A stretch of DNA of 60,057 bases, counting the filler, from Dugesia japonica (Eukaryota), in NCBI GenBank assembly GCA_001938525.1. It is 6 parts of 6 records of this genome, joined end to end, with 100 filler letters (N's around TTAATTAATTAA, not from the genome) between each part and the next. Parts side by side here need not be neighbours in the genome. Positions count along the whole stretch, not along the records: positions 10,541 to 21,196 come from MQRL01591091.1; 5 more parts are not named here. One strand, written 5' to 3'. Below are positions 6,861-49,405 of this stretch, in pieces. A program made the position numbers and the translations under genes. Numbering within the stretch: the stretch's first letter is position 1; each line of letters starts with the position of its first letter. The notes under the pieces were generated by a model. It was not told the DNA's origin and searched no databases. It saw only the letters and a program-made list of their open reading frames with translations.

Positions 6861-7414
6861 TCATTTCAATGGGGAATCTTAAACTTAATTTAATTTAATT
6901 AAATTTGAATTAAATTAATTTATTTATGTAAGAGATGTGGCAGTCTTAATATTTTGCATGCAGAGTCTATATATTTTGCATAAGATAGGATGAATTGATA
7001 TTTTTTAAGATATTTCTCAAGATATTACAAGATATTGGACAGTCTTGATATTTTTAAAGATATTATGACAAGATATCGCGCAGTTTTGATATTTTTTAAG
7101 ATATTATTACAAGATATTTAATTCTCTTTCAATGGGGAAATATTTTAATTATAATTAAATTAAATTTAATTTAATTAAATTTGAATTAAATTAATTTATT
7201 TATATAAGAAATGTGGCAGTCCTATATTTTGCATAAGATGGGCAGACGTGATATTTCTTAAGATATTTTTAAGATATTACAAGATATTGGACAGTTTTAC
7301 AACTGCAATTATTGCGAGAATAATTGTTGGACATAACCATTGATCGTTTTATAGAATTCATTTAATATAAAAGCTTTGATCAAAATTTAAGTATTATTTA
7401 TTGATATTGGATAA

Positions 7415-7451
7415 CAATTCGATATTTCGACCTTGTCTTCGTCAGGAATTG
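7415..7451 (-). ncRNA. Minimal type I hammerhead ribozyme (Penelope/retrozyme type), intact
   Basis: Minus strand reads CAAUUC-CUGACGA-A-GAC-AAG-GUC-GAAA-UA-UC-GAAUUG: 6-bp stem I, complete core, 3-bp stem II, palindromic AUAU stem III, AUC cleavage triplet. Confidence 0.82.
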
Positions 7452-8478
7452 ACTTTTTTTTGACAGTCTTGATATTTTTAAGATATTATTACAAGATATT
7501 TTTTGAGATAATATTACAAGATATCTTGCAGTCTTGATATTTTTATTCAGTATATGTGTGTTGTAGCTGTAATGCTTTTGAATGCATTTATGAAAATATA
7601 TCTATTAAAAAACTTTAAAGATGAGTGACTTTGTGATAATTACATAATAAAAATATAACTATTAAAAATAACCAAAGAGGGAGTCCTTGTGATATTTGCA
7701 TAATAAAATATAACTTTTATTAAAATATTCATATAAAAAATGTTCAAAGTGGGGAGTTTTTGTGTCATTTATATGAATAAATATTCAAATTAAAACTTTT
7801 CATTACAAAATGATAAAAAACAGAACTTTTTTCAAAACATATTATTATTGGTAATTTTATATAAAAAAAATATATCATTACTGATGCGCTGCAATTTTTA
7901 ATAAAAAAATATTATAGATGTGTTGACAATAATAAAACGTCTGCCCTATATCTTGTAATGATATCTTAAAAATGTCAAGAATACCCATAACATGCGTAAA
8001 TATATTGTAATAACATCTTCAAAAATATCAAGACTGCACGATATCTTGAATTAATATCTTAAAAAATATTAAAAGTGTCCATAACATGCATAAATATCTT
8101 GTAATAATATCTTAAAAATATCAAAACTGCCCGATATCTTGTAATAATATCTTTAAAAATATCAAGTCTGTCCAATATCTTGTAATATCTTAAAAAAATA
8201 TCACGACTGCCCATCTTATGCAAAATATAGGACTGCCACATCTCTTACATAAATAAATTAATTTAATTCAAATTAAATTAAATTAAATTAAATTTAATTA
8301 AATTAAATTAAATTTAATTATAATTAAAAGATTTACCCCATTGAAAGAGAATTAAATATCTTGTGATAATATCTTAAAAAATATCAAGACTGCCCATAAC
8401 ATGCATAAATATCTTGTAATAATATCTTAAAAAATATCAAAACTGCCCAATATCTTGTCATAATATCTTTAAAAATAT

Positions 8479-9900
8479 AGTAGGGGGATAGTGGCGCACT
8501 AGCCCACCTTGATTTTTTAGCCCACTTTCATATTTTGCTGTTATCGGAGGGGATCCCCCTCCCCCTGGGGGGGGGCTCAGAAACACATTACGCTGGGATA
8601 TGTTTTTTTAACTATGATTTTTGTGTTGGTTTTTTTCCAAGATTTTTGGGATCAAAAAATTTTTGATCGGATCGGTTTTTTTTATCCTGGTGGTTTGTGT
8701 GTGTGTACTTTTAAATTTAAAAATTTTTGTGTGTTTGGGTTGTTAAGGTGGTTTTTAAAAAGTAGGTCAAGTTGAGTTTGTGTTTGTGGTTGTGTGTGTG
8801 TAAGTGAAAGAGTGAAAAAAAGGAGGAGGAGAAGTTGGAAATCTTGGAAATAATTTTTTTTTAGTTTTTATGATTTGGTTGATGTTGGACAAAAATATTG
8901 TCTATAAATTGTCTAAAGGACTTATGAGATTGGATGGATGGTTTGTCCTACAACTATGGTGGCGCACTAGCCCACTCGTATGAGTTATTGTGGGTCGTTT
9001 TTAGGAAGGCTGTAGGTTTGAATGTGTTTGTTGGAATTTGTTGGTTAATAGTTTGTTGGAGAGGTATTGTAATGGAAAAGATTTTGTATATCGAATGTGC
9101 TTTGATTTTTTAATTATAGGGCTACTATTTGATTGGTTGATATTTGTAGGTAGTATAAAAGTTTTAAAAAATATTTTGACTGGGAAGGATGGATTTTCAT
9201 ATTTTTCGAACGAAGAAGTAGGGATTCTTGTTATTTTTTAGTGGGAAATTCAAAAAACATTTGGCGAATAATTTAAATTTTTTTTTGGCGGGAAATTTAA
9301 AAAAATCTTTTGGCGGTTAATTCAAAAAAAAATATTTTTGGTGGAAAATTCAAAAATAATATTTTTTAATTTAAAATTTTTCATTTAAACCAGGGAAATC
9401 TTTTTAATATAAATAAATTTAATTAAACTAATTTATTTATGCATGGTATAGGCAGTCTCTATATTTATGCATGTTATGGGCAGTCTCTATATTTATGCAC
9501 GGTATAGGCAGTCTCTATATTTATGCATGGTATGGGCAGTCTTTATATTTATGCATGTTATGGGCAGTTTCTATATTTATGCATGGTACGGACAGTCTCT
9601 GTATTTATGCATGTTATGAGCAGTCTCTATATTTATGCATGGTATGGGCAGTCTCTATATTTATGCATGGTATGGGCAGTCTCTATATTTATGCATGTTA
9701 TGGGCAGTTTCTATATTTATGCATGGTATGGACAGTCTCTATATTTATGCGTGTTATGAGCAGTCTCTATATTTATGCATGGTATGGGCTGTCTCTATAT
9801 TTATGCATGTTATGGCAGTCTTGATATTTTTTAAGATATTATTACAAGAAATTTATGCTATGGGGAGTCTATATATTTATGCATGGTATGGCTAATCTTT
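8479..9900 (+). mobile_element. Second, diverged copy of the same TIR arm, abutting or inserted into the first element
   Basis: Starts AGTAGGGGGATAG. Colinear with 5831-7000 (CATTACGCT, TTGATCGGATC, GGTCAAGTTGAGTTTGTGT, GTTGGACAAAA). E2F-like array at ~9240-9350. Confidence 0.65.
9436..9900. repeat. 28-bp minisatellite (ATTTATGCATG[G/T]TATGGGCAGTCTCTAT), about 14-16 units
   Basis: Directly visible tandem array; related to the GCAGTCTTGATAT subterminal repeats at 6940-7550 and 7930-8478. Confidence 0.92.
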
Positions 9901-10214: not shown

Positions 10215-10730
10215 AGCAAATTCCCAACTAAAAAGCCTATAAAAAATATTACCACCTAAAAAGCCTGAAAAATATTACCGTTTAAAAAGCCCAAAAAATT
10301 TTCCNNNNNNNNNNNNNNNNNNNNNNNNNNNNNNACTTTGCCGTCTAATAAGCTTGAAAAATTTTCCCAACTAAATACACAGGAAAATATGTAGCCACTT
10401 AATCCTATTACGTAAATTTTCCCGGAGATGAAATTAATCTNNNNNNNNNNNNNNNNNNNNNNNNNNNNNNNNNNNNNNNNNNNNTTAATTAATTAANNNN
10501 NNNNNNNNNNNNNNNNNNNNNNNNNNNNNNNNNNNNNNNNCTTTTTAGGGTCCTAATTGCACCGATTGGTTTTCTTCTTGATTTTTCTTGTTGGAATATT
10601 TTCTGACGTCCGGGACCAAAGTTATCCGTATAAAACAGATTTTTATCTAATTTTCGTTTATTTTTTGTTTAAAATTATTTAATTTTTTCTGTATTAATTA
10701 ATTATTTTTTATTATTGTTTTCTGGTTGCT
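10215..10730 (-). repeat. Inverted partial copy of the promoter/leader module (copy 1), spanning the linker
   Basis: Reverse complement of 10600-10700 (AAAATCTGTTTTATACGGATAACTTTGGTCCCGGACGTCAGAA) aligns with ~13950-13995 (AAAATATGTTTTATGCAAATAACTTTGCTTCGGAACATCACAGAA). Reverse complement of 10360-10440 aligns with ~14400-14500. Confidence 0.6.
10441..10540. other. Assembly linker (44N + TTAATTAATTAA + 44N)
   Basis: The same 100-bp spacer, with stops in all six frames, occurs five times. Confidence 0.97.
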
Positions 10731-10924
10731 TCCTTCAAAATTATTAATAATTTTAATTGTTGATCAATAATGGGTTCATTTCTTCTACACCTTCTTCATT
10801 GCATGTTCATTTCTTTTTATTATCACCTTTAGATACTTTATCTCTTTTCTTGATTTATTTTCTACTTTAGTGGGTGTTCCACCCCAACAATATAACCAGA
10901 ACAATAATGTAAATTTTGTAAATA

Positions 10925-12120
10925 ATGGAATTCGATTTGGACTTATCAATAAACGTAGCCAGAATTATAATGAATGACCCAGACATTGAATTATTCGGTA
11001 TGAGCAAAGGTCGAGAAGAAATCAAGTAAACCCCAGTAACAAAAAACATAATGCACTACCGTAACATATTTGCAGCACCAGAAAATTTCATAAGTAAAAG
11101 GGTGTGTTACAGCACAATGAAAGTGTTTGATGAGAAGTACAGGGATGAAAATGCAAGAAAGCAATCGTTATTCCAACTACCTAAATATTTATACGGTCTC
11201 ATTGAAGCCCTAGCCAAATCAGGATTTTACTACGTCGGTACCCAAGAACGACCAGATAGAGTAAAATGTATATATTTTCAAGGCATCCTACACAAATGGG
11301 GCATGAATGAGCAACTCAATAAAGCACACAGGAAATGGTTTCCTACCAGTCCATTCTTGCTAAATGTAAATGTAAACAACAAATCCCAACTAACTAAAGG
11401 AAGAAAATCCAAAACCGAGAAAACTACCATGGAACCAAAGCGGATATACTGTAAAATCATAAAGAACTTAGCAGAAGTTGCCCTGCTAGAAGATCTGGAA
11501 TGGAATATCGAAGAAAGAGAAAAAACGTTCAAAGAATCACCAAATCTGAAAGAAAAGCCCTGGATGGATTATACTTTGTCCAACAAACCAGAAATAAAAT
11601 TATCAAATGCACCAATTGCAAACGAGAAACTCTATTACTGCAGGGAATAGAGAAATTACCAAAGAAAATATTTCATCAACCAAATGGTTCAAGATTAACA
11701 CCAATTTACGAGGAAGAAATACAAACCACAGCATGTAGAATCGAGTGGAATATGTCGAGTAACAGAATAGAAATGGCAATTGAATTACAGACTAACCGAC
11801 TGTCTAATATCTTAAAGTTAAATAGGATGAATATCAAACAGTTAATAAACCAAACGGTCACAGAAAAAGGGTCTGAACTAGTCACACCATATGAGTTATA
11901 TCAAAGATCACTCAAATCAGTAAAACCACAGGTAAAATATGAGCGGGAATGGGTGTTGCTAGATCATGATTGCGTTATCTGCCTTTTAGAAACCATCGAG
12001 GTCGTATTTCTGCCATGTGGACATTTTAAAACATGCTATAATTGTGCTATAAACTTAAATGAATGCCCTATGTGTCGAAAGTTAATTGAACGAAGAACAC
12101 TAGGAATAAAATTTCAATAA
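10925..12120 (+). pseudogene. Intronless IAP-like gene, BIR-(degenerate BIR)-RING, with one early stop and one frameshift
   Basis: BIR1: RKQSL..LP.....LAKSGFYYVG....DRVKCIYF..ILHKW.......AHRKWFPTSPF (two Cys lost). BIR2 remnant: REKTF..LDGLYFV..IKCTNC..H. Intact C3HC4 RING: CVICLLETIEVVFLPCGHFKTCYNCAINLNECPMCR. AATAAA at the stop. Confidence 0.88.
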
Positions 12121-12217
12121 TAAATAAAGTTAGATATGTAAATCATGTATGATTATATATACTTATATTTGTCAACATATTATTATAATAAAATAATTAC
12201 TCTCTCTGATTTTAGAA

Positions 12218-13371
12218 ATGAACGTGGAAAACCTAATAAACCATCTCCGCAATGAGATTCAATTCTTACAAATACAAACTCAAACCCTCACAACCGTACC
12301 AGATGTCCTAAAATGGAAATTGGAATCCAAAATCGATGCCTTTTCCAATTTACAATTGCAAAAATATATTAGCGAATTGGAGAGCCAAATAGAAAAAGCA
12401 CGTCACGAATTNGAAATAAAAAAGCGATCGTGCAAAACCCACCAAAAATACATAAAAAGCAATATCGACGCCAATAGAGCGAAAATAAATGCTATCAAAC
12501 AAGCCCAAAGCTGGAAGAGTAAATATGAGGAAGTCGAACATAAAATAAAGTTACTCGAGAATCAACTAATAGTCGAACAAGAAAATAACCACAGTTTTAG
12601 AATGGAACTGTTTAACACGCAGTTTGAAAAAAATTATCTGGTTACCGAAAATCAATTCCTAACCAGTCTAGCCAATCGAGAAAGGGTACAAGCTGATATC
12701 CATAAATTGTCCTTGGAATTCGAGAGCATAATGCAAGATTACCAGCAAAAGAATGAATTTTTACAGCAATACATCGAAGCCCTAGAGCAGGAAATCATTG
12801 AAATGCGAAACCTCTACCATGGAAAAGAAGATAAGATGAAACAAAAACAACAACAGTTAGTCGAGCAATTTGCCACCATTAAGGAACTACAGCAAGCGCA
12901 CACAGCTCGCAACCAATCTTTCATCCATTAGTACTACCGATCCTACCACACCTAAGGAATCTAATCATTCTTAATCCACCCAAATCAACACTAAACCCTG
13001 ACGCTCCAGAATGGCAACCAATAATCTCCAGTCTACTAAGACAATACACACCGTTAATAATCCAGGAACCCACGTCAGCTCCAGTTAAATCTAGAATACC
13101 AGAATCGATAAACAAAATAATTGATCAGGTCCCGCACATAATTTCAGCACCTACTCAACCCAGAAAGTCAGTACCTTTAGTGATACAAGAAACCCAAAGT
13201 AAACAACTCGGTTCTGCAACACCCAGCCGGATACACAGTAGAACCTCAGTGTGGAATCATAACCAATTTAAGAGAAACCTGTCCCAGTCAATCGTAACGG
13301 AAATATTACGAAAATTTGGTTCCGAAATACGAGCTAGTGACCTGGACGGTCTAGTAGAGGAAGTCGATTAG
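12218..13371 (+). pseudogene. Coiled-coil protein with Pro-rich tail, PAM2 motif and C-terminal EEVD (one frameshift between ~12883 and 12928)
   Basis: TTTTAG-AA-ATG start; 237 aa of heptad-rich sequence. The alternative frame is open 12883-13371, contains KSTLNPDAPEWQP and ends GLVEEVD*. AATAAA at 13392. Confidence 0.75.
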
Positions 13372-13599
13372 AACAAGTTGAGCGCGATGTAAATAAACTG
13401 TAATTAATCCATCGGACATCAATGAAGGGAATGAACTGTAAACTTTAATGTATATTGTATTTGAATGTATAACGTAGAAATTTTTATGTATGTGTTATGA
13501 GATAGCATGTAATGACCTTAAAATTCACCTTGCTCTGTCAGTTTTATTGGGGATAGAGGAGTTTCTGCAACGGGGACGAACTGTGACAAATTCCGGGAC

Positions 13600-14535
13600 G
13601 GAATTTAAACAAGTCGGAGAGCGATTTGTTGGGGTGGAACACCAGGACAAAGAGAACTAAGACCACGGGGGTCATCAAATACAAGTTATGGGAAAGGAAG
13701 TAAATTACGCAAAATGATTAAACGAAAAAGAAAAACCGGCACAACCATCGGATAGAATGATAAACCCAAAGTTTAAATAAACCATATAAAGGAAGCCGAT
13801 ATAATAAATTCGAACAATCCAATCGAAGTCATCCAATTAAGAAAATTATCGAGTTATTATTTGGATGAATGAGAAGATTAGTTAACAAACGATTTAATTA
13901 TCAAGAAAAAAATTAATTAATTTAATTTAAAAATAAAGAAAAATGATGTCAAAATATGTTTTATGCAAATAACTTTGCTTCGGAACATCACAGAACGACG
14001 GTGCAAGAAAATTCCAGAAGAGAAAAACAAGGGTCATTAAGAATTATCTGGAGAAAAAACTTACCATCATCCGGAAAGGTACTGTAGGGTTTCCAAGATC
14101 GAACCAATCAGATACCTAAAAATAAAAATAAAACAAAGAAGGAACCATCACATGGCCCTCTAAAAATACCTACCAATCAGAATTCCAAAACTCTACAAAA
14201 AATTCTAGAATAACAGCACCAACACCAATAAAATTCTAGAATTCTAAAACAAAAATACCTACCAATGAGAACGGTGCTGGGTTGTATCAAAAAATCATAT
14301 AAAAAGACCCCTGAACTTAACAGAAAAACACACAAAAATTTGAATATTGTAACTGCTACAGCAGCATTATATTATAAAGAAAAATTTTCATAGGAAACGT
14401 TAGTGAATTCTCATCGCAAATATAATTCCGGGAGAATATTCAATAATTTACGAAGCAGTCCAGAAAAGGAAATCGTAGCAAAATTTTAGTTGGAAAAGTC
14501 CCTTGCAGAAAATTCTATTAATTTTAATAGTAAGT
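13600..14535 (+). promoter_or_regulatory. Promoter/leader module (copy 2): CCAAT cluster, TATA box, candidate leader exon ending at a GTAAGT donor
   Basis: CCAAT at 14104, 14173, 14225 and 14262; TATAAAA at 14298; GTAAGT at 14530; TTGTTGGGGTGGAACACC at 13626 shared with 20238. Confidence 0.62.
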
Positions 14536-14736
14536 AATATGTTGGATGTTTTTATTTGTATTTAAATGTAATCTTAAATTAAATTATTAATGTCGAAATA
14601 ATATATGTTGGATATTTATGTTTTTTTATTTTTTGTTATTATCGTGATAAATTACCTCAAAAGAAAGTAATTAATTTATAAGTAGACATTATAGATCAGA
14701 TCCATGTTATGTCTCTTTTGATGTAGCAGAAACCAG

Positions 14737-14883
14737 ATGGGTGTTCATAAAGACGCCTGTCACAGCAAGAAAATGAATGATCAAAAAATACCCATGAAAA
14801 CGTACCAGTTCGCGAGTGCATATTCATTCATCGCTATAAATCAATTTCACCACTCTGTCATTAGGCGGCAAGTATTAAACTAA
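14737..14883 (+). CDS. 48-aa mini-ORF of the cassette, unknown function
   Basis: Pyrimidine tract + TAG/CAG immediately before the ATG; MGVHKDACHSKKMNDQKIPMKTYQF...RRQVLN*. Confidence 0.3.
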   Translation: MGVHKDACHSKKMNDQKIPMKTYQFASAYSFIAINQFHHSVIRRQVLN

Positions 14884-15149
14884 TTACATACAGACTCAGC
14901 AAAAAGAGAGCCCACTAACTAATTAGTTAGATGGTAAAATATCTCGGTTTCTCGTCGTGCCACTCACTGAAAACGCATCACATTGTTAAACACACTAAGA
15001 TGGGCGTGTAGGTAAACCAAGGTCGAATTCGATGTCGTTCCTAAGCGACTGTAAAATGCCACAATTTAAAAGATTATAATTAGCAATAAAATCATTGTAT
15101 CTGAATGAACAATTTTTAAATAACTTCTCATTATAGGAGTCTATTGGTT

Positions 15150-15321
15150 GCTTCATTGATATTATTATTATTATTATCACTATTGTTAGTATTATTATTA
15201 CTATTATCATTAACATCACGACTATTACTATTATTATTATTAGTATTTTATGGTTATTATCTTTGTGACGATCGTTATTATTATTAGTATTATTAATATA
15301 ATCATTAATATTATTAATATT

Positions 15322-15382
<61 letters not shown>

Positions 15383-15700
15383 NNNNNNNNNNNNNNNNNN
15401 NNNNNNNNNNNNNNNNNNNNNNNNNNNNNNNNNNNNNNNNNNNNNNNNNNNNNNTTATTATCGTTAATATCTTTATTATTATTCGCACCATTATATTCAC
15501 AATTATTATGATCATTTTAATTATCTGTCCAATTGCTAATGACCATATTATCGATATTATTATTAAAATACGTATCACTATTATTGGTAGTAGTAATCGA
15601 TGAGTTATTACGTTAAATATCAATGTCCAGCCGATTAATAATAGTCCGAAGTCATGCGGATCATCATATATATACTTTTTGTGAATCGGCATGTATTAAT
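15150..15700. repeat. (ATT)n microsatellite with degenerate flanks
   Basis: Pure ATT core at ~15325-15382 running into a gap; degenerate triplets on both sides. Confidence 0.92.
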
Positions 15701-16027
15701 AAAAGTAATAGTAATTCGGTATTGTTATCCTCCCTCTCAATTTTGGAGTGTTATCCACATTAAAATTATAGCCTGAATTTACTGTTACGGTTACATTAAC
15801 ATTCTGGTGGCGTGTAGCATCAGTAACGTTAACTGTGGTATGTTTTATCAGGATTCTGCACGTGGGTCAATTACCCATGAACAGCGATGAATTTACATAG
15901 GCCATTTCAGAGAGCAAGGGTAGAGACTCCCCACTAGTATTACCTGAAAGTAATGCCGATCCGGTTTTTCTTAAGGAACTAAATCATTAGAGATGTTGTT
16001 AAAGTATGCTCTTCTTACATTTAGCTT

Positions 16028-16210
16028 ATGCCCGTCAAATTGTGTCGGATCCTGCGAAAGATAGAACGACAGAGACGAGCTGTTCGTAGAAAACAGTTGA
16101 TAGCTCACATAATAACCCATGAAAAAATAGAGCATCCGGATGAAACGGACCTGTGCTGTTTTGCCGAGAAGTTCCCCATGGACGGGAAGGTAGATTTAGA
16201 CGAGGAGTAA
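16028..16210 (+). CDS. 60-aa mini-protein, family A (paralogue of 22891-23076)
   Basis: CATTTAG-CTT-ATG start; gapless 24/60 identity with the ORF at 22891 (RKQLIxH, PDExDLxCFxExFP, VDxD). Confidence 0.75.
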   Translation: MPVKLCRILRKIERQRRAVRRKQLIAHIITHEKIEHPDETDLCCFAEKFPMDGKVDLDEE

Positions 16211-16351
16211 TTACTTTCCTTAGTGTAACGGGTATCTGTGTGTTTAAATATACCAGGAAATGAAATTTTGTAGTTTTTATTTTTATAATTCGTCTATTAT
16301 GTCTTAATGTGGTGTAATCTAAACTTTACTAGCCCTATTCTGTTCTTAGGT

Positions 16352-16708
16352 ATGGACTCTATATGGATACGTGTCATCGATAGGTGAACCCGTCGACTAA
16401 CTCTGCGTCGATATCACAACCCGCATAATCAGGATGCCGGTATCTTAGTTTACGGGTCAAATTTACCACCGGTCGAATCAATCGTTGCCCGCATTAATGA
16501 TTTTGGAGAACGGCAGCGATACCAGGCGTGGACGGGCCTGGATCGCACTTTAGCAACTTCATTTTCATACCAACCTACCACTCTCGCCCCAGCTCCTGCG
16601 ATACAAGCGTTCATCGCTAATCTTCTCTGGAGAGTCCGAGAGCCGAATGGTGTAGCTGATGCGGAAAACACTGCCCTCAACGCCGACAATAATAATAATC
16701 CTTCTTAA
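16352..16708 (+). pseudogene. 118-codon mini-gene with one internal TGA (not in the ORF track)
   Basis: TTCTTAG-GT-ATG; MDSIWIRVIDR*TRRLTLRRYHNPHNQDAGILVYGSNLPPVESIVARINDFGERQRYQAW...NNNNPS*; GC-richer than flanks; AATAAA at 16730. Confidence 0.62.
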
Positions 16709-17022
16709 ACTGTTTGGTTATTTGTTAGAAATAAATAAGTGTTTCATTTGTGACTATTTCTAAATTTTCTTGTAAATCGGATTTCTAGTGATCGTGATTT
16801 AATTTTGACTTTAGTATTTTTTTGCGGTATTATTTGTAACGGGATTGGTCTTATCGATTTTATTTAATAATATTGCTAGTCAAGACCACCCAACTTTTCT
16901 AATAATAGTTAACATTGAGTAAAGTGTAACACCTTAAACATGTTTATATTTCAGTGCATTCGACTTTAAATAGGTTCCAGGTCCCGACTAAAAAATGACG
17001 AGAAGATAATGATGACAAGGAG

Positions 17023-17313
17023 ATGACTTGGGATCTTTATAAACTAGCTAAGAGGCGATGGGAAGCAGAGATCGCCGCGGCCGACGCTAAAGTAAAACGC
17101 TACAAGCGAAAATGTTTAACTTTTAAAGCCNAAATGGACGCCACCCAGAAACAAGAGAGGGTGTGGAAGTCCCAGGTTGAAACATTTACCAAGATGGTCC
17201 ATTCTTATCAGGAGCGGGAGAATAATTTGATGGAAAATATATTGAAGCTGAGAGCAGCGACACCTTTGGCCCCTCTCTTGATAGATAAGGGCACTCAGAC
17301 CAACCGCTCCTGA
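17023..17313 (+). CDS. 96-aa coiled-coil mini-protein ending in an LC8-binding motif (DKGTQT)
   Basis: ORF track; acceptor TTTCAG at 16954; AATAAA at 17342. Confidence 0.65.
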   Translation: MTWDLYKLAKRRWEAEIAAADAKVKRYKRKCLTFKAXMDATQKQERVWKSQVETFTKMVHSYQERENNLMENILKLRAATPLAPLLIDKGTQTNRS

Positions 17314-17416
17314 GTGTTATGTTTACTAATTATTTGAGTTTAATAAACTATTTAATTGTCTTTTATAATTATGAACTTGAGTTTTCGTCAGTTTACTTGT
17401 ATTTTGTTTTCATTCA

Positions 17417-17800
17417 GTGCCACGAATTAACTTTCCCAATAGTATCCGGAGATGCCATAGAATTATGCGCCGCTTACTAGTCGAACGACACCTAAAACGT
17501 AAGACAGATAGGGCACTTATGAAACATTTAGACCAACGGGATCAGCTGATTAAAAAATTAGATTTAATTATAAAAAAGCAAAATGACCTGGCGGTTCAAA
17601 CTTAAGCTTTGGAAACCGAAACCAAACAGCTGTTGCTACGGAAAATCGAGTTCATAAAGCAATACATTGCTGATCTGTCTCGTCGAATAGGCAACCCATC
17701 TGTAACCCAAGAGGATGACGATGAAGACATAGCAGCTTTCAACTTTGTGGTAACAGAGCCCAACCAGTGGCTAGATCCAGAGGCACTGGATTTACTTTAA
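17417..17800 (+). pseudogene. ~127-codon mini-gene (basic / coiled-coil / acidic tail) with one internal TAA
   Basis: ORFs 17417-17605 and 17609-17800 are in frame; acceptor TTCATTCAG at the start; AATAAA at 17812. Confidence 0.62.
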
Positions 17801-18486
17801 TATTTTCAAAAAATAAATTTATGAAATCAAATTTGTAACTCCTTTCTTTCGATAGTAACGATAGGGAAACCATTGAACCCAAATATAAAGGTTTATCGGT
17901 GCGTACCTTCCATTGAGAGTAAGGTCAACCACCATGAACTGAAAGCCTACCTCGGGGACGGTAGGATAAATTCTTGAAAGGGTTCCCCTGAGGGCTGTTT
18001 TTTCCCCAGTCACCTTTTCTTGTCACTCGACTCAGGTGGGACCCCAACAGTATTATACATTGGAGTGTTAACTTGAGTTTCTTCAGGTAATGATTATTTC
18101 ATTAAGTGAATTATCACATTTAATAAGCAACTTGGAAATGTGTCGAGAAAGAATCATGCTTAATAATATGGACTCACAACTAAGGTTTAATAATGATAAA
18201 AATAACTGATTCTAAAATCTCAAAAATGAATTAACGCGACTTAAATGTAATAAAGTAGCGAAATAAGAGTCAATATTTGAGAGTCCCTGAGTACAATAGA
18301 GTATGAAGCACTCACAGCAAAGTCTCAACTCCTTGCTCGTATAGATTAAAAATCATAAAATTCATAAACTTGGATTTTCATAATGTACAAAAGTAATGAC
18401 TGATTTATTATAAAAATACTATTAATTAAGTGTGAACATTTTATTAATAATTAAATAAATAACTTCAATATTGTAAAAATTTAGAA

Positions 18487-18930
18487 ATGGTTAAAAATAT
18501 CTCGTTAACAGAAACTGTGAAATCATTGAACGGGTGGAACTTCACTGCACCGCCACCATATAATAGACCAGTACTCTACAATTCCTGGAGTGATGTGATG
18601 ATATAGACCCTTGGTGGATGAGGCAAGATAAGTTGCAATTACAAAATCTAAAGACCAGGAACAAGAAATCGCAGAAATGAAAATTTAGTACAAAACCAAA
18701 AAAAGCAGTAAAAACGAAATCAAGCGTTAGCAGATTTGTTTAAGAGTTCTATTAAAGTTTCATAGCATCTTATTAGGCCACCACAACGTACAGAAAAAGG
18801 AACCTTCATTAATCGTGTAGTACAAGAATAAGTAAAGGTTGCGGAGCGCATAGAGGCTCGCATTGAGCAGGTTATGCCGACCTTGATACCATATTTAATA
18901 GAAGATTGCAAAATAATTGTCGAAATCTAG
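18487..18930 (+). pseudogene. Degraded mini-gene containing PPPY
   Basis: TTTAG-AA-ATG; MVKNISLTETVKSLNGWNFTAPPPYNRPVLYNSW... then frameshifts; AATAAA at 18946. Confidence 0.5.
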
Positions 18931-19124
18931 TTTTATTCAAGTGTAAATAAAATTATTATAGTTTAAATGCGTTTTGTGTTAACGTACGATAATTTTAAAG
19001 TTACGAACTAGTAAATAACTATCATAATTATTAATGAAAGTTGACAAATTCTATTTTCTTTTATTATTATAACAATATGTTTTTAAGCTTTCCACATAAA
19101 CATTGTTTAATTTACAAAATTTCA

Positions 19125-19472
19125 ATGAAAATCACCAAGCTATCTCAAGAGAAGTTGTTAACAGAACAATGAAACAGTACGATTGAGTTGAAAAAGATGC
19201 GCAAAGAGATTAATGAATTAAGAAATTCGGTCAGTATCGCTAGATAGAAGATATCAATTCTGTGAGAAAGATTAAGCGTGAGTCGCCAGAAGGAACTCAC
19301 TCTAATCACAAACAACAGGATGCTCGTTGAGATAATCAAACCGTACGCCTACAAGGAGGCCAAACATGAGAACATTATGAAAGGAATATAATGGAAAAAC
19401 GAATAAAGATTCAGACTGTGAGAATACCAAGGAGACTATATTTGGCTCTCAATATATCAAATGTGTAAATAA
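19125..19472 (+). pseudogene. Degraded 115-codon coiled-coil mini-gene
   Basis: One continuous frame MKITKLSQEKLLTEQ*NSTIELKKMRKEINELRNSV... with several stops explicable as single C>T changes; AATAAA overlaps the stop. Confidence 0.45.
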
Positions 19473-20229
19473 ATTTAAAGTCATAACGACCGTATTTTCT
19501 TAGTTTTTAAAATAAATAAATTAATAAATATGAGCAGGAACACCAGTTAACTTTCTTCACAAACGGGATACAGTATAGTCCTGCATAGACCACGGTTTAG
19601 ACTATCGACTCACAAAGTGTCGAAAAGTTTCTNCTGGCTTCGAGGTATCTACTCCTAGAAGAGATAAATCACTGCAAAAAATAAACCAGGCAAAGAAAAA
19701 GAAAACATCAAAATCTTGAAGCCCTACAAAACTTTTGTTTGATAATTGAATTAATGAATTATTGAATATTTTTGTTGGAAGATGTCGGGGTAGAACTTAT
19801 TTACAGATAAAAAGTAAAATTAAACAGAAAAATTAAACAAAGTAGACAAAAGATTGAAAAGAAGAAAGAAAGAAACAAATACATCATTAAAATAGAAGGA
19901 AACGCCACAAGAACAGAGGATAATGAGAATTTATAAGCAAATGAATTATTTAGCGGAAAATTTATTAGGTATAAAAAATAAATAAATTATTATCATATGG
20001 AAATTTACATTCAGAATAAGTTACAAATTAATTAAGAGTAAAGGAACCCGAAATTGAAGAATATAATTTGTTACAAATTAATTATGAGAAAAATGATTTA
20101 ATAACTTAAGAAATCATCCATATACAACAGATTACCAAGCGGAAAATAATTACATTAATAACAAAAATTATTAAACATCAAATCAAATATTTGCCGAATC
20201 AGTCAGAACTAAAATATATAATTATTTTC

Positions 20230-21196
20230 AAACAGAATTGTTGGGGTGAAACACCGGATTAATGCAAAGAGAATTGCGTAAGTAAGCACGAAATTCGAAA
20301 AATCTACATGAGAAAGGAAAATGAAGAAATCAGACCCAAGAAGGGCATAATCTAGTTGGAGAGAAGAATGACGAAAGCCAAAATGAGACTAGAAGACTTA
20401 AACTCGTGAAAAAACTAGAACTACAACAGGAGATAACGACGAAATAAAAAAAACCAACAAAGTAAAGAAGCGGTACTCCAAACAACGAAAATAATAAACG
20501 ATGGCCAAGGAACTGATTCATTAATTGAAAAGGAAATAATGAAAAGGAAAATCAAGATTGGTAACCAGAACCAACGAAATAACCAAAAATCACAGCACGA
20601 AACAATTCAGAAGTAAATAAACCGAAGAAGAAAATGTAATAGAAGCTGTGACAGGACGACAAAAAATCTAATGATTAACCATCAATTCATTAGGCAAAAT
20701 CAAGAAAATCACACCGAATCATACTAGAAGAAAGANNNNNNNNNNNNNNNNNNNNNNNNNNNNNNNNNNNNNNNNNNNNNNNNNNNNNNNNNNNNNNNNN
20801 NNNNNNNNNNNNNNNNNNNNNNNNNNNNNNNNNNNNNNNNNNNNNNNNNNNNNNNNNNNNNNNNNNNNNNNNNNNNNNNNNNNNNNNNNNNNNTTTTAAA
20901 TAAAAAATTAAATTTTCTACAAAAAACTAAGAAAATTAGGACTTCTAGTGGTGCCAAAATTATCAATTTAGAAATTTCTGGTCGAGAAAAATCTGGAGAA
21001 CTCAAAAATCAAACTTAGAAAACCATGGCAAGGAAGAGAAAAAAGTTATAAGGGTTTGAAGGTTGACCAATAGTTTCGAAGTCCAAAAATAACCGCCAAT
21101 GAAAAGAAAGCATGTGACCGTTTGGCCAATAAAAGTGTCGAAAATTTATATTCACCAATGGAATAAACGGGGGTGTAGAAAAAACCGGTATAAATA
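20230..21196 (+). promoter_or_regulatory. Promoter module (copy 3): four CCAAT boxes at 29-30 bp spacing plus TATA
   Basis: CCAAT at 21067, 21096, 21126 and 21155; TATAAATA at 21189; TTGTTGGGGTGAAACACC at 20238 (17/18 identical to 13626). Confidence 0.7.
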
Positions 21197-21296
21197 NNNN
21201 NNNNNNNNNNNNNNNNNNNNNNNNNNNNNNNNNNNNNNNNTTAATTAATTAANNNNNNNNNNNNNNNNNNNNNNNNNNNNNNNNNNNNNNNNNNNN
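21197..21296. other. Assembly linker
   Basis: 44N-TTAATTAATTAA-44N. Confidence 0.97.
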
Positions 21297-23309: not shown

Positions 23310-26010
23310 AAATTCAAAACTACTCAAATAGTTCCTAACAAGCTGTTCAATCAAAGAGCAAAACACACTTTCCACAAGATCAAAGGTGAGCTCACTGAGT
23401 CTAAATACTTACTTCACAGCAGATATATGAAAGCCCTTTGAAAGTATTTCATGAAATTCTTGGATCTACAATTCCAGTCTCAACACCAACTAAAGAGAAT
23501 ATTATCAATTATTTCACTCAGATTCTGCCAGAAAACCTAAATCTAGATAAGTTTAAATTTCTTGATATTTCACTCTATCAACGAAATAAAATTAAATAAA
23601 ATCAAAACTGCTTTCAAAAGCACTTAGAAATCTTCATCCGGGATGAATAGAGTCACTTACTCCGATTGGCTTAAAATTGATCCCAATAACATATTTCTAC
23701 AGGCTCTCTTTAGCAGAATTCTACAGATTAAATATATACTTGATCAATAGAAAACGTTTTATACTAATCTCATCTTGAAACTGGTTAAAGAAAAGGAATC
23801 TCATCAAGTCTCATCTTGAAAATTTATAGCAATTTTGAATACCTCATACCGAATTTTTACAATTGTTATAAAAAACAGAATTCTCAGTTGGATTTCAGTA
23901 GGAAACTCACTCTCACCAACTCTAAATGTGACTTATTTATCAGATGGATGCTCACAACACAATGCTACAATACAATTAATTAGAGAAAAAGCTGAGCGCG
24001 AGAAATGGAATCTTAACCTTACTTGACTTGATCTGGCAGACACCTTTGATAGTACCCCTCAGAAAATACTCTGATTCATGCTTAAACATATTGGATTACA
24101 TCCTGAGACCGTTACTCTTTTTAAGGAGTTATACAAAGACATTTATTGTTCTTACAAATGTCTAGACATAAAAACAAGCGATATCAAAATCATTAAAGGA
24201 GTCAAACAAGGATGTTCTATGTCTATGACGCTTTTTAGCCTGATCATTGATTTCATTATTATAGTAACCTCAAAAGCATTTCCTCTAACTCTTAATGGGT
24301 ACAATGTTACCATTTTAGTTTATTCAGACGATCTTGAACTTATCTCCAATAATTACAATCAGACGAATCATATGATAAACAAAATTGTAAGCTTCACTGA
24401 TACAAGCCGTCTAAAGTTCATACCAAGCAAATGTGGATTCTTCCAACTTAAAACCCAAATAAAATATCAAAATTTACAATAAAGTGATTCAAAAAATTAA
24501 TGATGAAATTCTATACAATTACTTGGGAGTATCATTAGGAGAAGCTAAGAAAAACAACCTTAAAGACATAATCAACAATGCAATAGAAGACTTTGGAAAA
24601 ATCACAGAAAGCAGTCTTCATCCGTCATTAAAAGTCCAAACATAAAAATGTTTATTCATTCAAGATTAATCTATGCTATGAGGAACCGAGACATTTTCTA
24701 TATGAAACTGAACAACCCTCATCACAAAAAGTTTGATGGCAGTACAAGACAATCAGATTATCAAAAGAATTTTTAAGAACATCAATCAAGCTCCAAACAG
24801 CAGTGACAATAATGCCTTTCCTTTCGTTCTATCTAAACGTGGAGGATTAGATTTGTTGCCTTCAATCGATGAGTACTATATTCAAAGTATAGTAAATGCC
24901 TTCCGGATCCTCAATTCTCAAAAGAATTGTTTCAAAGTGTTAACAGCTAGGGAACTTGAGCACAGATTCAGAAACAATAGCACATATTCGATCCAAAAGA
25001 CCTTGATGCATAACAACACTATTCCATCTTAAGATAAAACTAATATTACTGCATCTTTGTGTACCAGAGTAAGGACGTTAATAAAAAGACTTTACGAAAC
25101 TCATAAACTCAAACTGCTCTTCTTTATTGAAGAAAATGAAATAGAGCTGAAAATCACTTGGCTGGATGATTAGAACTTTTTTCTCAATATACTGATCAAA
25201 AACAGCTCAAAATCTTAGTTGTGCAATGTCCTTCATACTAAAATTGAAATGACATATTTCCAAAAATGGAAAAGCCTTTCCACACAAGGTCTTCTAACAA
25301 CATGTTTAGACTCATCAGACTATGCTCAAAATTTTATGAAAAACTTAAACCTTTCTGAAAACGATTACCCATTCATTATTCGAGTAAGAAACAATCTTTT
25401 GAGAACTAACTACAATCCTAACAAACTGAAAAGCAACATACCAATTCATTGCAAAGAATCTGGTACTGAAGCTATAAACTTAAATACACATATTTAACCA
25501 CTGCTCAGCGAGGAGGAATAAACAGTACAATAAACACAATCATGTTAAGGAAAAGATTGTAGCTCAACTTAGAAAATGGAATTTTGATGTAGAAATTGAT
25601 TCATGTTCACAAAGCTTTGCAAAAGCTAGAGAAGATAATAGGAAAAAATATAAGAGCATCAAATTCGAAATTAGCTCAAAGTTCTACAAAAAGGTTACAC
25701 TTAATAATCTTGTCATTGGAACATTAAACTCAAGGAACGCCTTCAATCAAAGGGCTCTCAAACATATTGGTCTAACCTCAAATGAAATAAAGAAAATCTC
25801 GTAAATATCAATCAAAAGAGTAATCAAAGTGAGCTATCATATTTACTTAAATCATATAATCAATGAGGCTAAATTTCCTTCAATTCAAAACTAAATTCTG
25901 TTTAGACTCAAATGTCCAAGAAATTTATCAAATTGAGTTCTTTCTAAATAACCAAATATAATAAAATAAAAATCTATGATCTCGGATTTATTCGAATCAT
26001 TCAAGACTTA
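23310..26010 (+). mobile_element. Degraded RLE-type non-LTR retrotransposon (NeSL/R5/R4-like), 5'-truncated
   Basis: RT motifs DLADTFDSTP, GVKQGCSMSMTLF, VYSDDL, KFIPSKC, YNYLGV; RGGLDL thumb; C-terminal HCK..E...HI..C..HN zinc remnant; KY and LVIGTL of an RLE domain. Confidence 0.85.
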
Positions 26011-28194: not shown

Positions 28195-30312
28195 TCCATC
28201 TCTCTTTAAAAGCTCTTAACCACGTTACCATTTTCAAATTTAATGTGATAACCCCTATAATGTCTCTTTTTAATTATTTTTCCCGGGCCTTCATACCTAT
28301 CTTTGTCTTTATTAGTAGCAATATTATTACCAAAATGTTGTCTCCAATTTTAAAATGTATTTTCATAATTCCATGCATGTTATGACTAATTTCATCTTGA
28401 TCAATGAGATTTTCATTCTATTTTCATGTTTCTCTTCTACATTTTCATGAATATTCTTTTCTTGTGAAATTTTATTTCCAAAAACAATTTCCGCTGGGCT
28501 CAATTTTAATGTACTTCGATATGTATAATTTGTCATAAATTTTACTTCAGGGAGTATATCTGTCCAATTTTTATTTGTTTTATTTTGTAATGTTGTATGA
28601 ATTGCATCTCTTAAAGTCCGAAATTGTATTTCGATTTGTCCATTACTAGAATGATATACGGACTTGAGAATTTTAACTCTGTCTATGTTTTTCTGTCAAT
28701 TCTCTAATTTAATTCGATTCAAATGATCTTCTTCTATCACAAGTAATAATTTTAGGGCCCCAAATTTCAAAATCCACTGGTTTTTTAATATAGTTTTTTC
28801 GGTTTCATCAATTACTCATATTAATGAAATATACTTGCTAAATTGATCTGTAATAGCTAATATATATTTTTTACTATTTCTAGCGGTTTTAAACGGTCCA
28901 CAGAAATCAATAGGTATAATTTCATAATTTATCTGTTGGCAACATTTTACTTATGTCTTCTTTTGTTTTTGAAGTTACAGTTTTCCTTTTTTGACATTTT
29001 TTACAGCTTTGTACAGTCTCATATATTATATAAGTTTTATTTTCCATATCAAATTGTGAATTGTATAAACAATATTTTCAATCAATTTAAATTTATAATT
29101 TGTTTCAAAGCTTAAGTTCTCTTTAAAAACATCGAATTTTTTCACTCTTTTTGCCATTTACAACCATCATTTTGTAAAATTAATGCCAATATTTTAGCTT
29201 TTAATTTTTCAGATTTTGGTTCTTTATATATAGTCTGGCATTGGACACACGTTTCACAATTCGTTCTTCAGAGAGCATCTGCATTCAAATGTTCTTCACA
29301 TTTTCTGTATTTCATTTAAATATCCAAAATGATAGGATGGTTGATCCAAGTCTGAAATTGTGGTGTTATTGGTCTTTTAGCCTTCAGCTTTTAGTGATCA
29401 GTTCTTAATCGAAATCTCTGTCCATACAAACAATATTTAAAATGTTCTGTGAAATAAACTATCGCAAAACGTTCTTTTCTGGTAATGCAAAAATAGCCCA
29501 GCTTGTGTTTACTCATGGCTTTGGATCCGTAAGAAATAACTTTTTCTTCTCCATCGTTATCAGTTTGACTTAAAATTGCACCAATTACATCAAAGCTGGC
29601 ATCAGTATCCATTATAAATGCTTTAGAAAAATTTGGAAATGCTAAAACTGGAGCTTCCATTAGTTCAGCTTTCAAATTTTTAAAAGAAATTTTGCACTCA
29701 CTATTGTTTTTTCTTTTATAGGTAGTTTGTGACCCGTGAATGATTTAAATTCTTCTAATAGTCTAGTATTAAAATTTTCTTTTTGTTGTTTATTAAGAAA
29801 TATCTATTTAATTAATGTATATGCTGCTCCCGTATCTATTAATGAAGGTATGTTATATTCATTTACTGATATGATCATAGTAGATCTGGGAGTATCCCCA
29901 TTTATTACATATACCTCATGTGATCTTGGAGATGCGGTATATTTTATCAGTTTTTCGTTTTCAAAATTTGATTTTAATTCGTTGAGTTTATCAGTTTCTA
30001 GTAGATAGGGCTTATTTTCATTATTTCTTGATTCTATGTTCTCATCTCCATTTGATATGTTAATTGTGTATGTTTGATTTTGAGTTTGTCTTTTTAATTT
30101 TCTGATTTTATCATGATATGTTTGCATAATGAAGTGTTTTGCAATAAATGGACATATGCATGCTGCTATTTTTTACTGGAGTACCGGATACTGAGTGTAA
30201 TTGTTTTAATGATATTAGTTGATGGCATGCTAGTTTTAATTAAATAGGTACATGATATAGTAATAGGAAAAATTAGCACCAAGTGCATGTGCATTACCCA
30301 GAAATTTGACAA
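28195..30312 (-). mobile_element. Ty3/gypsy internal region: protease, (RT deleted), RNase H, integrase
   Basis: SLIDTGAAYTLI; APVLAFPNFSKAFIMDTDAS..IGAILSQ...FRLRTDH; IDFCGPF, ITDQFSKY, YHSSNGQIE, YEGPG. Confidence 0.9.
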
Positions 30313-30412
30313 NNNNNNNNNNNNNNNNNNNNNNNNNNNNNNNNNNNNNNNNNNNNTTAATTAATTAANNNNNNNNNNNNNNNNNNNNNNNNNNNNNNNN
30401 NNNNNNNNNNNN
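30313..30412. other. Assembly linker
   Basis: 44N-TTAATTAATTAA-44N. Confidence 0.97.
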
Positions 30413-32644: not shown

Positions 32645-34291
32645 ATGTCAAAAGGCGTACTCTATTCTCCAGTTGGATTCTATAAATCTCAACGTATCCA
32701 AATAATTGCAAAATATGCTGGAAAAGATTTAGAGTTATCTGAAAAACCTGTTCCGGAAAATTTGATTGTTCCGAAAGATGCTATTCCAGTTTATAGTGAA
32801 GGAGATTTAACTCTCTTTGAAACAAATGCTATTGGGTTCTATTTAGGAAATGAACAATTGAGAGGTAACATAATTAATGACTTTTAGACCATTTAAAATT
32901 TCAATTAGGAAACAATGACAAAGCATCAGTATCTCAATGGTGCAACTATGCTGATTTAGTTCTATTACCAGCTGTCGGTACCTTAGTCTTTCCATGTTTG
33001 GGATTAATGCAGTTGAATAAAAGTGAAAGTGATAAGGCCAGAGTTTTAATTCTTAATGAATTAAAATTCTTGAATGATGTTCTTTTGAAGAAAACATTTT
33101 TAGTTGGAGAAAGAATTTCACAAGCTGATATAACAGTATTTAGCGTGTTGAAGATGCTATACGAAATGATTCTTGATGAGCAAACAAGACGAGCATTTGT
33201 CAATGTTAATAGATGGTTTTTGACAGTCGCGAATCAAGAACATGTTAAAAATGTTGTCGGCGAAATTAAATTGTGTGTAACTCCTGCTGTTTTTGATGCT
33301 AAAAAATATGCTGAATTACATCCCAAGAAAGAAGTTAAAGATGATAAAAAACCAAAGGAAAAGAAACCACAAGAGAAAAAACAAGAGAAACCAAAAAAAG
33401 AAGAAGAAGAAATTGAAGAAGATGTCCCAGCTGTTAAAGAAGGACCATGTCCATATAGTTTGTTACCAAAAGGAACATTTGATATGGACGAGTGGAAAAG
33501 AACATACTCGAATAATGATATAGTAACTGTTGCATTACCATATTTTTGGAGTAAATTTGACTCTGAAAATTATTCTATTTGGACCTGNNNNNNNNNNNNN
33601 NNNNNNNNNNNNNNNNNNNNNNNNNNNNNNNNNNNNNAAATTGTGTGTAACTCCTGCTGTTTTTGATGCTAAAAAATATGCTGAATTACATCCCAAGAAA
33701 GAAGTTAAAGATGATAAAAAACCAAAGGAAAAGAAACCACAAGAGAAAAAACAAGAGAAACCAAAAAAAGAAGAAGAANNNNNNNNNNNNNNNNNNNNNN
33801 NNNNNNNNNNNNNNNNNNNNNNNNNNNNNNNNNNNNNNNNNNNNNNNNNNNNNNNNNNNNNNNNNNNNNNNNNNNNNNNNNNNNNNNNNNNNNNNNNNNN
33901 NNNNNNNNNNNNNNNNNNNNNNNNNNNNNNNNNNNNNNNNNNNNNNNNNNNNNNNNNNNNNNNNNNNNNNNNNAAAGAATTAGAATTGATTTTCATGACA
34001 TGCAATTTAGTTTCTGGTATGTTTCAAAGATTGGATAGATTGAGAAAACATGCTTTTGGAAGTATGGTCATTATTGGTGAAAACCGTAACAACCAAATTA
34101 AAGGTTTGTGGATCTTAAAAGGACAAGAATTAGCATTTACCTTACATGATGATTGTAAGGTTGATTATGAATCATATAAATGGCAAAAACTTGATCCTAA
34201 TGCATCTGAAACTAAAGATTTAGTCAAGTCTTACTTCACGCATGAAGGAGACTTTGGAATGCCATTCAATCAAGGAAAAATTTTTAAATAA
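32645..34291 (+). CDS. EEF1G: Elongation factor 1-gamma (eEF1B-gamma); intron 32865-32908; gaps and a duplicated segment in the 3' half
   Basis: MSKGVLYS... GST-N/GST-C domain (LFETNAIGFY, KTFLVGERISQAD, NVNRWFLT), lysine-rich linker, FDMDEWKRTYSN, FMTCNLVSGMFQRLD, FNQGKIFK*. The 44-bp GT-AG intron restores the frame. Confidence 0.97.
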
Positions 34292-35498: not shown

Positions 35499-35955
35499 CT
35501 AATTCCAAATTCGAAGGAAACTGTCCCAAGATCCGGTGCACACTGCCATTCCATCTTCCGAAACTCCGAGACAGCTGACTCGGTTATCGTGACCAGCTAA
35601 AACTCCTGAAATAATAATATTGATTTTAAGATATTTTCCCTTCCAAAAATCGTGGTATTTATTTACCGGCTCTATCTTGTTTCAGTGTGTCCCATACGTT
35701 ACAGTTGAAATCGTCATAACCACCGAGTAATAATCGGCCACTTTTGCTGAAAGCAACACTTGTAATACCACAAATAATGTTGTCGTGAGAAAACATTCCT
35801 ATTTCTTGATCAGCTCTTATATCAAACAATCGACAGGTAGCATCGTCAGAACCTGTTGCGAATGCCTGACCATTGGGGAAAAACGTTATTGCGTTTATAT
35901 CCGATTCATGACCCGGAAACGTTTGCTTACACTGACCATCTCGTAAGTCCCAAAG
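35499..35955 (-). CDS. GNB: Heterotrimeric G-protein beta subunit, last two exons (35955-35667 and 35605-35499); missed by the ORF track
   Basis: [51 protein letters not shown]...[14 protein letters not shown]|[35 protein letters not shown]; 61-bp GT-AG intron. Confidence 0.97.
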
Positions 35956-36021
35956 CTTTACAATAAAAAAATTTTAATTTTTCATTTATACTAGTCGATT
36001 TTTGTAATAGTATGATTTTTC

Positions 36022-37245
36022 GGAAAAATTAATGTTAGAAAAACGTTGGATCATCTTTTTTTTTGACAAAGTTGTTCAAATTAAAAACACGATAGAAAAT
36101 CTTATAAAGAATCTTATATAAGAAAAAATTATAATAGAATTTTAAATTAAAAACACACCCTTCATTCCGACAATTTTAATTTTGTTAAAATAGTATTTTG
36201 TATTTGAGATTAAAATTTAAAAATGTTCTCTTCTTAAAGCTTTTTAAAACATAACGTTTTACATCATAAAAAAATTAATTTCGGAAATTTGTTAAATTAG
36301 TTTTTTTTATTTTGTTCTATTTAAAAATATGTAAAATTAATGTTATAAAAACGTTTAAAATAAAAATGAAACTCTAAGATTAATTGGATCATCTTCTTTG
36401 ACTAAGTTGTTCAAATTAAAAACACGATAGAAAATCTATAAATTTATTTTAAATTAAAAACACTCACTTTAACCGATAATTTTAATTTTGTTAAAATAGT
36501 ATTTTTTATCTGAGATTAAAATTTAAAAATGTTTTCTTCTTAGAGCTTTTTAGAACATAACGTTTTACATCATAAAATAATTAATTTCGGAAATTTGTTA
36601 AAATAGTTTTTTTTATTTTGTTCTATTTAAAAATATGTAAAATTAATGTTATAAAAACGTTTAAAAAATGAAACTCTAAGATTAATTGGATCATCTTCTT
36701 TGACTAAGTTGTTCAAATTAAAAACACGATAGAAAATCTATAAATTTATTTTAAATTAAAAACACTCACTTCAATCGATAATTTTAATTTTGTTAAAATA
36801 TTATTTTTTAATTGAGATTAAAATTTAAAAATGTTTTCTTCTTAGAGCTTTTTAAAACATAACGTTTTACATCATAAAAAAATTAATTTCGGAAATTTGT
36901 TAAAATAGTTTTTTTTATTTTGTTCTATTTAAAAATATGTAAAATTAATGTTAGAAAAACGTTTAAAATAAAAATGAAACTCTAAGATTAATTGGATCAT
37001 CTTCTTTGACTAAGTTGTTCAAATTAAAAACACGATAGAAAATCTATAAATTTATTTTAAATTAAAAACACTCACTTCAATCGATGATTTTAATTTTGTT
37101 AAAATAGTATTTTTTATCTGAGATTAATATTTTAAAATGTTCTCTTAAAGATTTTTAAAACATAACGTTTTACATTATATAAAAAATTAATTTTCGGAAA
37201 TTCGTTCAATTTGTTAAAATAGTCTTTATTTTGTTCTATTTAATC
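36022..37245. repeat. Tandem repeat, ~302-306 bp x4, in the G-beta intron
   Basis: GTAAAATTAATGTTA recurs at 36331, 36637 and 36939; units are near-identical. Confidence 0.92.
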
Positions 37246-39910: not shown

Positions 39911-40010
39911 NNNNNNNNNNNNNNNNNNNNNNNNNNNNNNNNNNNNNNNNNNNNTTAATTAATTAANNNNNNNNNNNNNNNNNNNNNNNNNNNNNNNNNN
40001 NNNNNNNNNN
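39911..40010. other. Assembly linker
   Basis: 44N-TTAATTAATTAA-44N. Confidence 0.97.
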
Positions 40011-49305: not shown

Positions 49306-49405
49306 NNNNNNNNNNNNNNNNNNNNNNNNNNNNNNNNNNNNNNNNNNNNTTAATTAATTAANNNNNNNNNNNNNNNNNNNNNNNNNNNNNNNNNNNNNNN
49401 NNNNN
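49306..49405. other. Assembly linker
   Basis: 44N-TTAATTAATTAA-44N. Confidence 0.97.

Follow-up and report, generated by a model that had tools for sequence, protein, structure and literature searches.

A dead repeat copy in Dugesia japonica with an accessory gene joining a PAM2w-type motif to an Hsp70/Hsp90-like C-terminus

We find that a locus in the genome of the planarian Dugesia japonica (assembly GCA_001938525.1) is a dead copy of a large, diverged, high-copy repeat family, and that it contains a gene whose 3' part joins a PAM2w-type motif to a C-terminal EEVD. Taken as a whole, we read it as a dead accessory-gene copy of a likely Burro-type element, the product of which, at ~385 residues, would dock both on PABP (through PAM2w) and on TPR co-chaperones (through VEEVD); we give this full reading an even chance. 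Of its two docking motifs, the PAM2w is well supported and the EEVD moderately so. The locus lies at 10541-21196 of the stretch of DNA that was analysed (60,057 nucleotides with filler, referred to here as the window), which is interrupted at 10441-10540, 21197-21296, 30313-30412, 39911-40010 and 49306-49405 by five linkers of one and the same sequence (44 N, 12 letters and another 44 N). The window strings together separate scaffolds of 9-11 kb, and sequences that face each other across a linker are not real neighbours.

The 3' part of the accessory gene is the frame from 12883 to 13371 (+), which translates into 162 residues followed by a stop and holds no Met of its own. It encodes KSTLNPDAPEWQP at 12982-13020 (+) and ends in GLVEEVD, with EEVD at 13357-13368 followed by TAG. 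An earlier note on this DNA had described an open frame with a PAM2 motif and an EEVD end; translation confirms this description, and each motif is unique in the window. Both the strict pattern LNPxAxE[FW]xP and an EEVD followed by a stop occur once in its six frames and in none of 40 sequences of 60 kb simulated at local composition. From composition, the chance of the PAM2 pattern is ~1e-6, that of a terminal EEVD ~1e-5, and that of the 153-codon open run ~6e-5 (local composition), all three figures being post hoc and drawn from a single window. Between the motifs, the tail is rich in Pro, Ser, Thr and Gln (P+S+T+Q make up 44% of residues 31-125) and is likely disordered; a single-sequence fold prediction of the tail is uninformative (pLDDT 41).

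How should the first motif be classified? The earlier note had likened the motif to the PAM2 of ataxin-2, which it gave as KSTLNPNAKEFNP. The core LNPDAPEWQP (12991..13020, +) instead belongs to the tryptophan variant, PAM2w, of the LARP4/4B type, with Trp at the anchor position, and it satisfies the consensus LNxxAxE[F/W]xP as given in PMC7356810. The Pfam match to PAM2 (PF07145) is weak, with an E of 0.026 and 14.6 bits, below the gathering cut-off of 20, and a PDB search with the motif peptide returned only designed kelch-like proteins, by chance. PAM2w is known from LARP4 and LARP4B (PMC7356810), and the predicted PABPC MLLE ligand described here resembles both these and the classical PAM2 proteins (PMC9753129) in its LNxxAxEWxP pattern, its Trp anchor and its likely disordered surroundings. 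Unlike LARP4 and LARP4B, the accessory protein has no La module or other RNA-binding domain, would be encoded by a mobile element, and pairs the motif with a chaperone-type tail.

The C-terminal VEEVD and stop (13354..13371, +) form a predicted TPR-clamp ligand, since they follow the rule for EEVD ligands of a hydrophobic residue and EEVD at a free C-terminus. Hsp70 ends in GPTIEEVD and Hsp90 in MEEVD (PMC11870554, PMC3463805), and these ends are ligands of TPR co-chaperones (PMC5433227, PMC11870554). The likeness to both chaperones extends to the hydrophobic residue, the EEVD and the free C-terminus (PMC11870554, PMC5433227, PMC3463805); unlike them, the accessory protein carries no chaperone domain and is a predicted mimic of the motif only. 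We reject a captured fragment of Hsp70 or Hsp90, as Pfam, HMMER and PDB searches find no chaperone similarity. Just before the EEVD lies a weak ankyrin-like stretch (13291..13353, +), some 20 residues that resemble the second half of an ankyrin repeat. All 20 of its 20 PDB matches are designed ankyrin-repeat-type proteins, with no single stretch significant; a full ankyrin repeat was not found in the tail, where ~20 residues match and Pfam gives no ankyrin hit.

The 5' part of the gene is an ORF of 237 amino acids (12218..12931, +) that runs to a premature stop. It is a predicted coiled coil with heptad periodicity and two conserved islands; its nearest ESM Atlas clusters are generic coiled coils, and a homodimer prediction for the coil piece scores 0.28 against a mark of 0.32. 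The frame of the tail overlaps the 3' end of this ORF by 49 bases, in the minus-one register, and the frame break of this copy lies at 12900..12915 (+). Here, contigs of close relatives differ in length such that both parts fall into one frame: in the contig set X1 the length-differing contigs restore the single frame and make up 59.5 of a depth of 68.4, and in X4 they make up about half of the depth, a result that comes from five (X1) and three (X4) short contigs at low depth and in which two adjacent indel rows are taken as one event aligned in two ways. The earlier note had proposed that one frameshift would join the tail to the 237-aa coil into a protein of ~385 aa, and the fusion in these few contigs bears this out. 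In close relatives, we conclude from the contig sequences, the coil and tail frames are very probably one gene of ~385 codons, a single ORF in the family. The same note's notion of a hidden frame fails: because the coil/tail overlap offers no slippery heptamer (none was found in 12820-12931) and relatives do not carry the break, the frameshift is a decay lesion in a dead copy of a high-copy repeat, neither hidden, recoded nor programmed.

To see how the locus compares with its relatives, two contig sets (X1 and X4) and two poly(A) RNA runs, together four of 24 listed runs, were aligned to 11400-13750. On these 2.35 kb, 2227 and 1884 contigs align in the two contig sets, at identities from below 90% to 99%. 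Since most are less than 95% alike, we take them to represent a large, diverged repeat family, although summed contig depth gives no exact copy number. Peaks of summed depth lie at the RING of the neighbouring IAP gene, at the two coil islands, at the bin with the PAM2 motif and at 13533-13690. Because contigs common to many copies have high depth, a peak is a mark of conservation, if an indirect one; summed depth could instead reflect a nucleotide-level element. In the PAM2 bin it reaches 10743 and 6630, which is 13x and 10x the median over the other five bins of the tail, so that by these indirect measures (the depth peak and the composition of the tail) the motif is a conserved island in a variable, likely disordered region. 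We consider it quite probable that the PAM2w has been selected as an MLLE ligand.

The evidence at the C-terminus is of a different kind. Depth in the EEVD bin is 805, below that of the median bin (1014), and it climbs from 50 at 13338-13343 to 1295 at 13373, a 25-fold rise toward the stop. The substitutions considered are 40 of 432 rows, none of which falls in 13345-13371. Indels were scored at a threshold of 15 in 100; among 12 of the 13 rows, four lie at the two frame breaks and eight in five places within 13373-13647. No indel among these 12 falls elsewhere in the coding sequence (P ~3e-4, or 2e-3 if the 13th row is coding). The first downstream indel, at 13373, is two bases past the EEVD stop and, because indels begin there, the ORF of the family appears to end at this stop. 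We incline, with some reserve, to the view that the EEVD has been selected as a TPR ligand. One contig keeps six tail codons with three silent changes, an anecdotal observation made by eye, and internal deletions occur in many single copies, as seen in the 15 of 27 joint rows considered. Within the 60-kb window, a second copy of the coil/tail or IAP genes is absent.

RNA reads on 11400-13750 number 61 and 12 in the two poly(A) runs, all of them partial and none 95% alike; at 12743-13532 there is no poly(A) read in either run, a quarter of each run's reads being covered. Over the coil, X13 shows a trace, at depth 2, of RNA reads with <90% identity. The RNA runs and the DNA have a species label in common and nothing further. 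At 12001-12036, 36 bases of the RING match poly(A) reads of a different, expressed RING gene in both RNA runs.

Upstream of the accessory gene lies an IAP gene whose domains are split over two frames, with a BIR part at 10925..11650 (+; E 9e-10) and a C-terminal C3HC4 RING at 11455..12120 (+; PF13920, E 5.6e-14; depth peak 11953-12110). The BIR part holds a stop at 11027-11029, and the frame breaks near 11550-11560, with the RING in the frame after the break; the length difference found there is of the same kind as at the coil/tail break. Going by the usual ligand pattern, the BIR of this copy lacks two of its four zinc ligands. Judged from its sequence, the IAP of this copy is real but dead. 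The earlier note had placed the tail next to an IAP E3 ligase, which holds insofar as a BIR-RING IAP does lie upstream and does not hold insofar as that gene is broken, in two frames and with the stop at 11027.

The gene pair is flanked by two arms that share an 18-nt motif. This motif is present three times in the window, where 0.02 occurrences are expected, and all three copies lie in the scaffold 10541-21196, at 10873(-), 13626-13643(+) and 20238(+). The left and right copies continue outward as homologous A-rich arms in inverted orientation, which align over 132 nt at 71% identity (E 3e-12; score 147 against a shuffle maximum of 91). The left arm (10551..10890, -) opens with the motif of the right arm and reaches the scaffold edge; it looks like the LTR-like terminal repeat of a related element and probably represents an insertion nested immediately upstream of the IAP. 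The right, LTR-like arm (13626..14042, +), downstream of the gene pair, is likely the start of a 3' LTR. We infer that the 18-nt motif is an LTR-like terminus, that the gene pair directly precedes the 3' LTR and that upstream of it a related element is nested. Running into the motif from the left is a structured unit (13563..13690, +; z -2.83) in which summed depth reaches its maximum for the stretch (>40000) and which has no match in Rfam. The third copy of the motif (20238-20255) is followed by A-rich sequence and is likely the terminus of another related element. In the same scaffold, a run of small intronless ORFs with AT-rich spacers spans 16388-17800 (+), in which no Pfam family passes and two ORFs are coil-like (17023-17313, and 17381-17800, the latter broken by a stop); these small ORFs are possibly further accessory genes.

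Which element could have carried such a gene pair? Burro/GYPSM1 of dugesiid planarians is described as numbering thousands of copies, as carrying BIR, Smc-like, MATH, BCL2 and ankyrin motifs along with an env-like region, as rich in apoptosis regulators, and in one species as persisting in the form of decaying fragments alone (PMC6431247). The BIR-RING region of Burro1 is reported to protect stem cells, guarding against caspase-mediated death (PMC13465017, citing Lee et al. 2026). The locus resembles these elements in its high copy number, its BIR-RING IAP and its accessory ORFs (PMC6431247, PMC13465017, PMC8532177), and further in that coiled-coil (Smc-like) and ankyrin motifs are listed for the family and that decayed copies carry stops and frameshifts. 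In contrast to Burro/GYPSM1, gag-pol and a direct LTR pair were not seen at the locus, and it is likened by description, not by the sequence of Burro1; the cited parts of the Burro descriptions, unlike this locus, name no PAM2 or EEVD motif. Gag or pol was not found in the scaffold 10541-21196, which starts 385 nt before the IAP, and what lies upstream of the IAP is an inverted repeat arm, not pol. What is found here of the features that mark Burro is the BIR-RING IAP region and the high copy number. Because the IAP, copy number, decay and LTR-like terminus fit, we regard a Burro-type giant gypsy retrotransposon as the likely carrier. By analogy, the locus probably corresponds in function to the 3' accessory region of an element of this kind, of which it is a putative member.

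If this reading is right, then the intact product may be a decoy adaptor on messenger RNPs, with a coil that would oligomerise and hold out a disordered tail bearing both docking motifs. Proteins with a PAM2 vie with one another for the MLLE domain, among them TOB, PAN3, eRF3 and GW182 (PMC9753129), and LARP4 inhibits deadenylation (PMC7356810). As LARP4 does, the PAM2w could compete with those PAM2 proteins of the host that mediate deadenylation and silencing (TOB, PAN3, GW182). Because of this competition and the effect of LARP4, it might stabilise the very long RNA of the element and favour its translation. The EEVD tail would tie up co-chaperones of the TPR type (HOP, CHIP, FKBP6/Shutdown), and could thereby draw folding help to the polyprotein of the element or away from PIWI loading, while the IAP next to it would protect the host cell from death. 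In flies transposon silencing requires the Hsp90-type TPR of Shutdown (PMC3463805), and HOP is likewise cited as needed. One can go further and picture the counter-silencing protein of a giant animal retrotransposon, in which PAM2w shields the RNA on PABP and EEVD titrates the co-chaperones of PIWI loading (FKBP6/Shutdown, HOP) beside a captured IAP; this extended proposal is speculative and we think it rather unlikely. Burro is known for domains captured from its host that act in the control of apoptosis and ubiquitin, with most of its accessory coding capacity unexplained. If both motifs are indeed selected, they would extend this repertoire to short-motif mimicry directed at the fate of mRNA and the co-chaperones of Hsp70/Hsp90, and would offer a concrete route by which an animal retrotransposon could resist piRNA silencing. 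Orf9b of SARS-CoV-2 competes at Tom70, an Hsp90-binding TPR protein, and it is not a copy of the EEVD sequence. Like Orf9b, which acts on Tom70, the accessory protein would be a product of a parasite directed at a receptor of the host (PMC10491932); the fold of Orf9b is unrelated to that of the accessory protein and it has no PAM2.

Several other explanations have to be weighed against the reading of a two-motif docking protein, and they differ in which part of it they deny. Perhaps the PAM2w is a selected PABP ligand and the protein an mRNA-stabilising adaptor only, with the EEVD incidental to this lineage of copies. The depth profile speaks for this, since the PAM2 bin is a strong peak and the EEVD bin is not (10743 vs 805), as does the fact that the 40 of 432 substitution rows considered do not include 13345-13371; furthermore, the acidic end could derive from a decayed ankyrin half-repeat. 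It is harder to square with the ~1e-5 composition chance of an EEVD-stop, with the hydrophobic residue that precedes the EEVD as in Hsp70 and Hsp90, and with the 25-fold rise in depth toward a stop right past which the indels start, so that we hold an incidental EEVD to be a minority prospect. A different role for the same end is also conceivable: EEVD resembles the caspase site DEVD, the gene adjoins a BIR-RING IAP, and the richness of Burro in apoptosis regulators, with a Burro1 IAP reported to guard against caspase-mediated death, would suit a caspase-site mimic that blocks apoptosis together with the IAP. Yet the exact match is to chaperone tails and the PAM2w points to mRNA control, and we judge this idea improbable. 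A free C-terminal Asp is moreover a cleavage product and as a rule a weak inhibitor, which counts against it too.

The remaining explanations concern the carrier and the gene itself. The protein could be as we describe it and yet be carried by something other than Burro, namely a composite DNA element, moved as a cassette with long inverted repeats on either side, or the remnant of an integrated large DNA virus. Homologous inverted arms, whose inner ends share 18 identical nt, do flank the two genes, gag-pol was not found in the scaffold 10541-21196, and many large DNA viruses encode BIR-RING IAPs. However, the arms are only ~70% alike in their best 132 nt, the third motif copy at 20238 is in direct orientation, the conserved ends face the genes, and viral contigs encode no relative; another carrier is thus doubtful in our view. 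As for the gene, a programmed ribosomal frameshift, giving a short product made of the coil alone and a long one with PAM2 and EEVD, would make use of the 49-base overlap in the minus-one register. The IAP has the same kind of lesion in addition to a stop and lost zinc ligands, no slippery heptamer is present in 12820-12931 and the break is not common to relatives, which largely refutes this explanation and leaves it with very little credence. We give less still to a processed pseudogene of a host gene, or to chance motifs in an open frame: no homologue was found and a scan of many windows will meet rare motifs, but the thousands of related contigs, the conservation peak at the motif and the coding-type avoidance of indels argue against both, and we reject the host pseudogene.

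Homologues of the encoded proteins were sought in several collections. A word-based protein search found no relative of the tail (0 of 636 candidates, compared with longer proteins), of the coil (0 of 238) or of the BIR part (0 of 103), and an exact look-up in a protein collection returned none of five proteins. With HMMER, 1.84 billion representatives gave one match, an ankyrin-repeat protein with an E of 6.6e-5 summed over four short stretches, which we do not take for a homologue. All ESM Atlas matches of the tail were <0.9, scans of metagenomes gave no match, and viral contigs held no relative of the tail or of the RING part. The viral contigs do show a PAM2w-like pattern at 24 loci, 15 of which read LNPxAPEW, and none of those frames has an EEVD end. 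On one of them (L001:682-1698, +), a 338-aa ORF without a Pfam family carries three spaced LNPxAPEW repeats at its end and, from its sequence, is a possible viral multi-PAM2w protein; the GVMAG label of its contig is presumably a giant-virus label. Among the papers listed in literature searches, none was found to describe a mobile-element protein with PAM2 and EEVD, and Lee et al. 2026, Grohme et al. 2018 and Jurka 2007 may already annotate the ORF.

Other scaffolds of the window hold features of their own. Reverse transcriptase and RNase H fragments at 24075-24482 (+), 29394-29744 (-) and 47529-47918 (+) are unlinked to the accessory-gene locus. At 53824-55470 (-), an integrase core (E 1.9e-5), a phospholipase A2-like domain (E 9.7e-5) and double jelly-roll-like matches (E 1.3e-4, 3.2e-3) stand in a row, which we take to be a decayed Polinton-like or adintovirus-like element. 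Host genes are represented by pieces of elongation factor 1-gamma at 33007-34291 (+) and by a G-protein beta exon at 35662-35973 (-). A nested inverted-repeat region of ~1.6 kb spans 6879-8490, and 36053-37192 holds a tandem array whose period is close to 304 nt.
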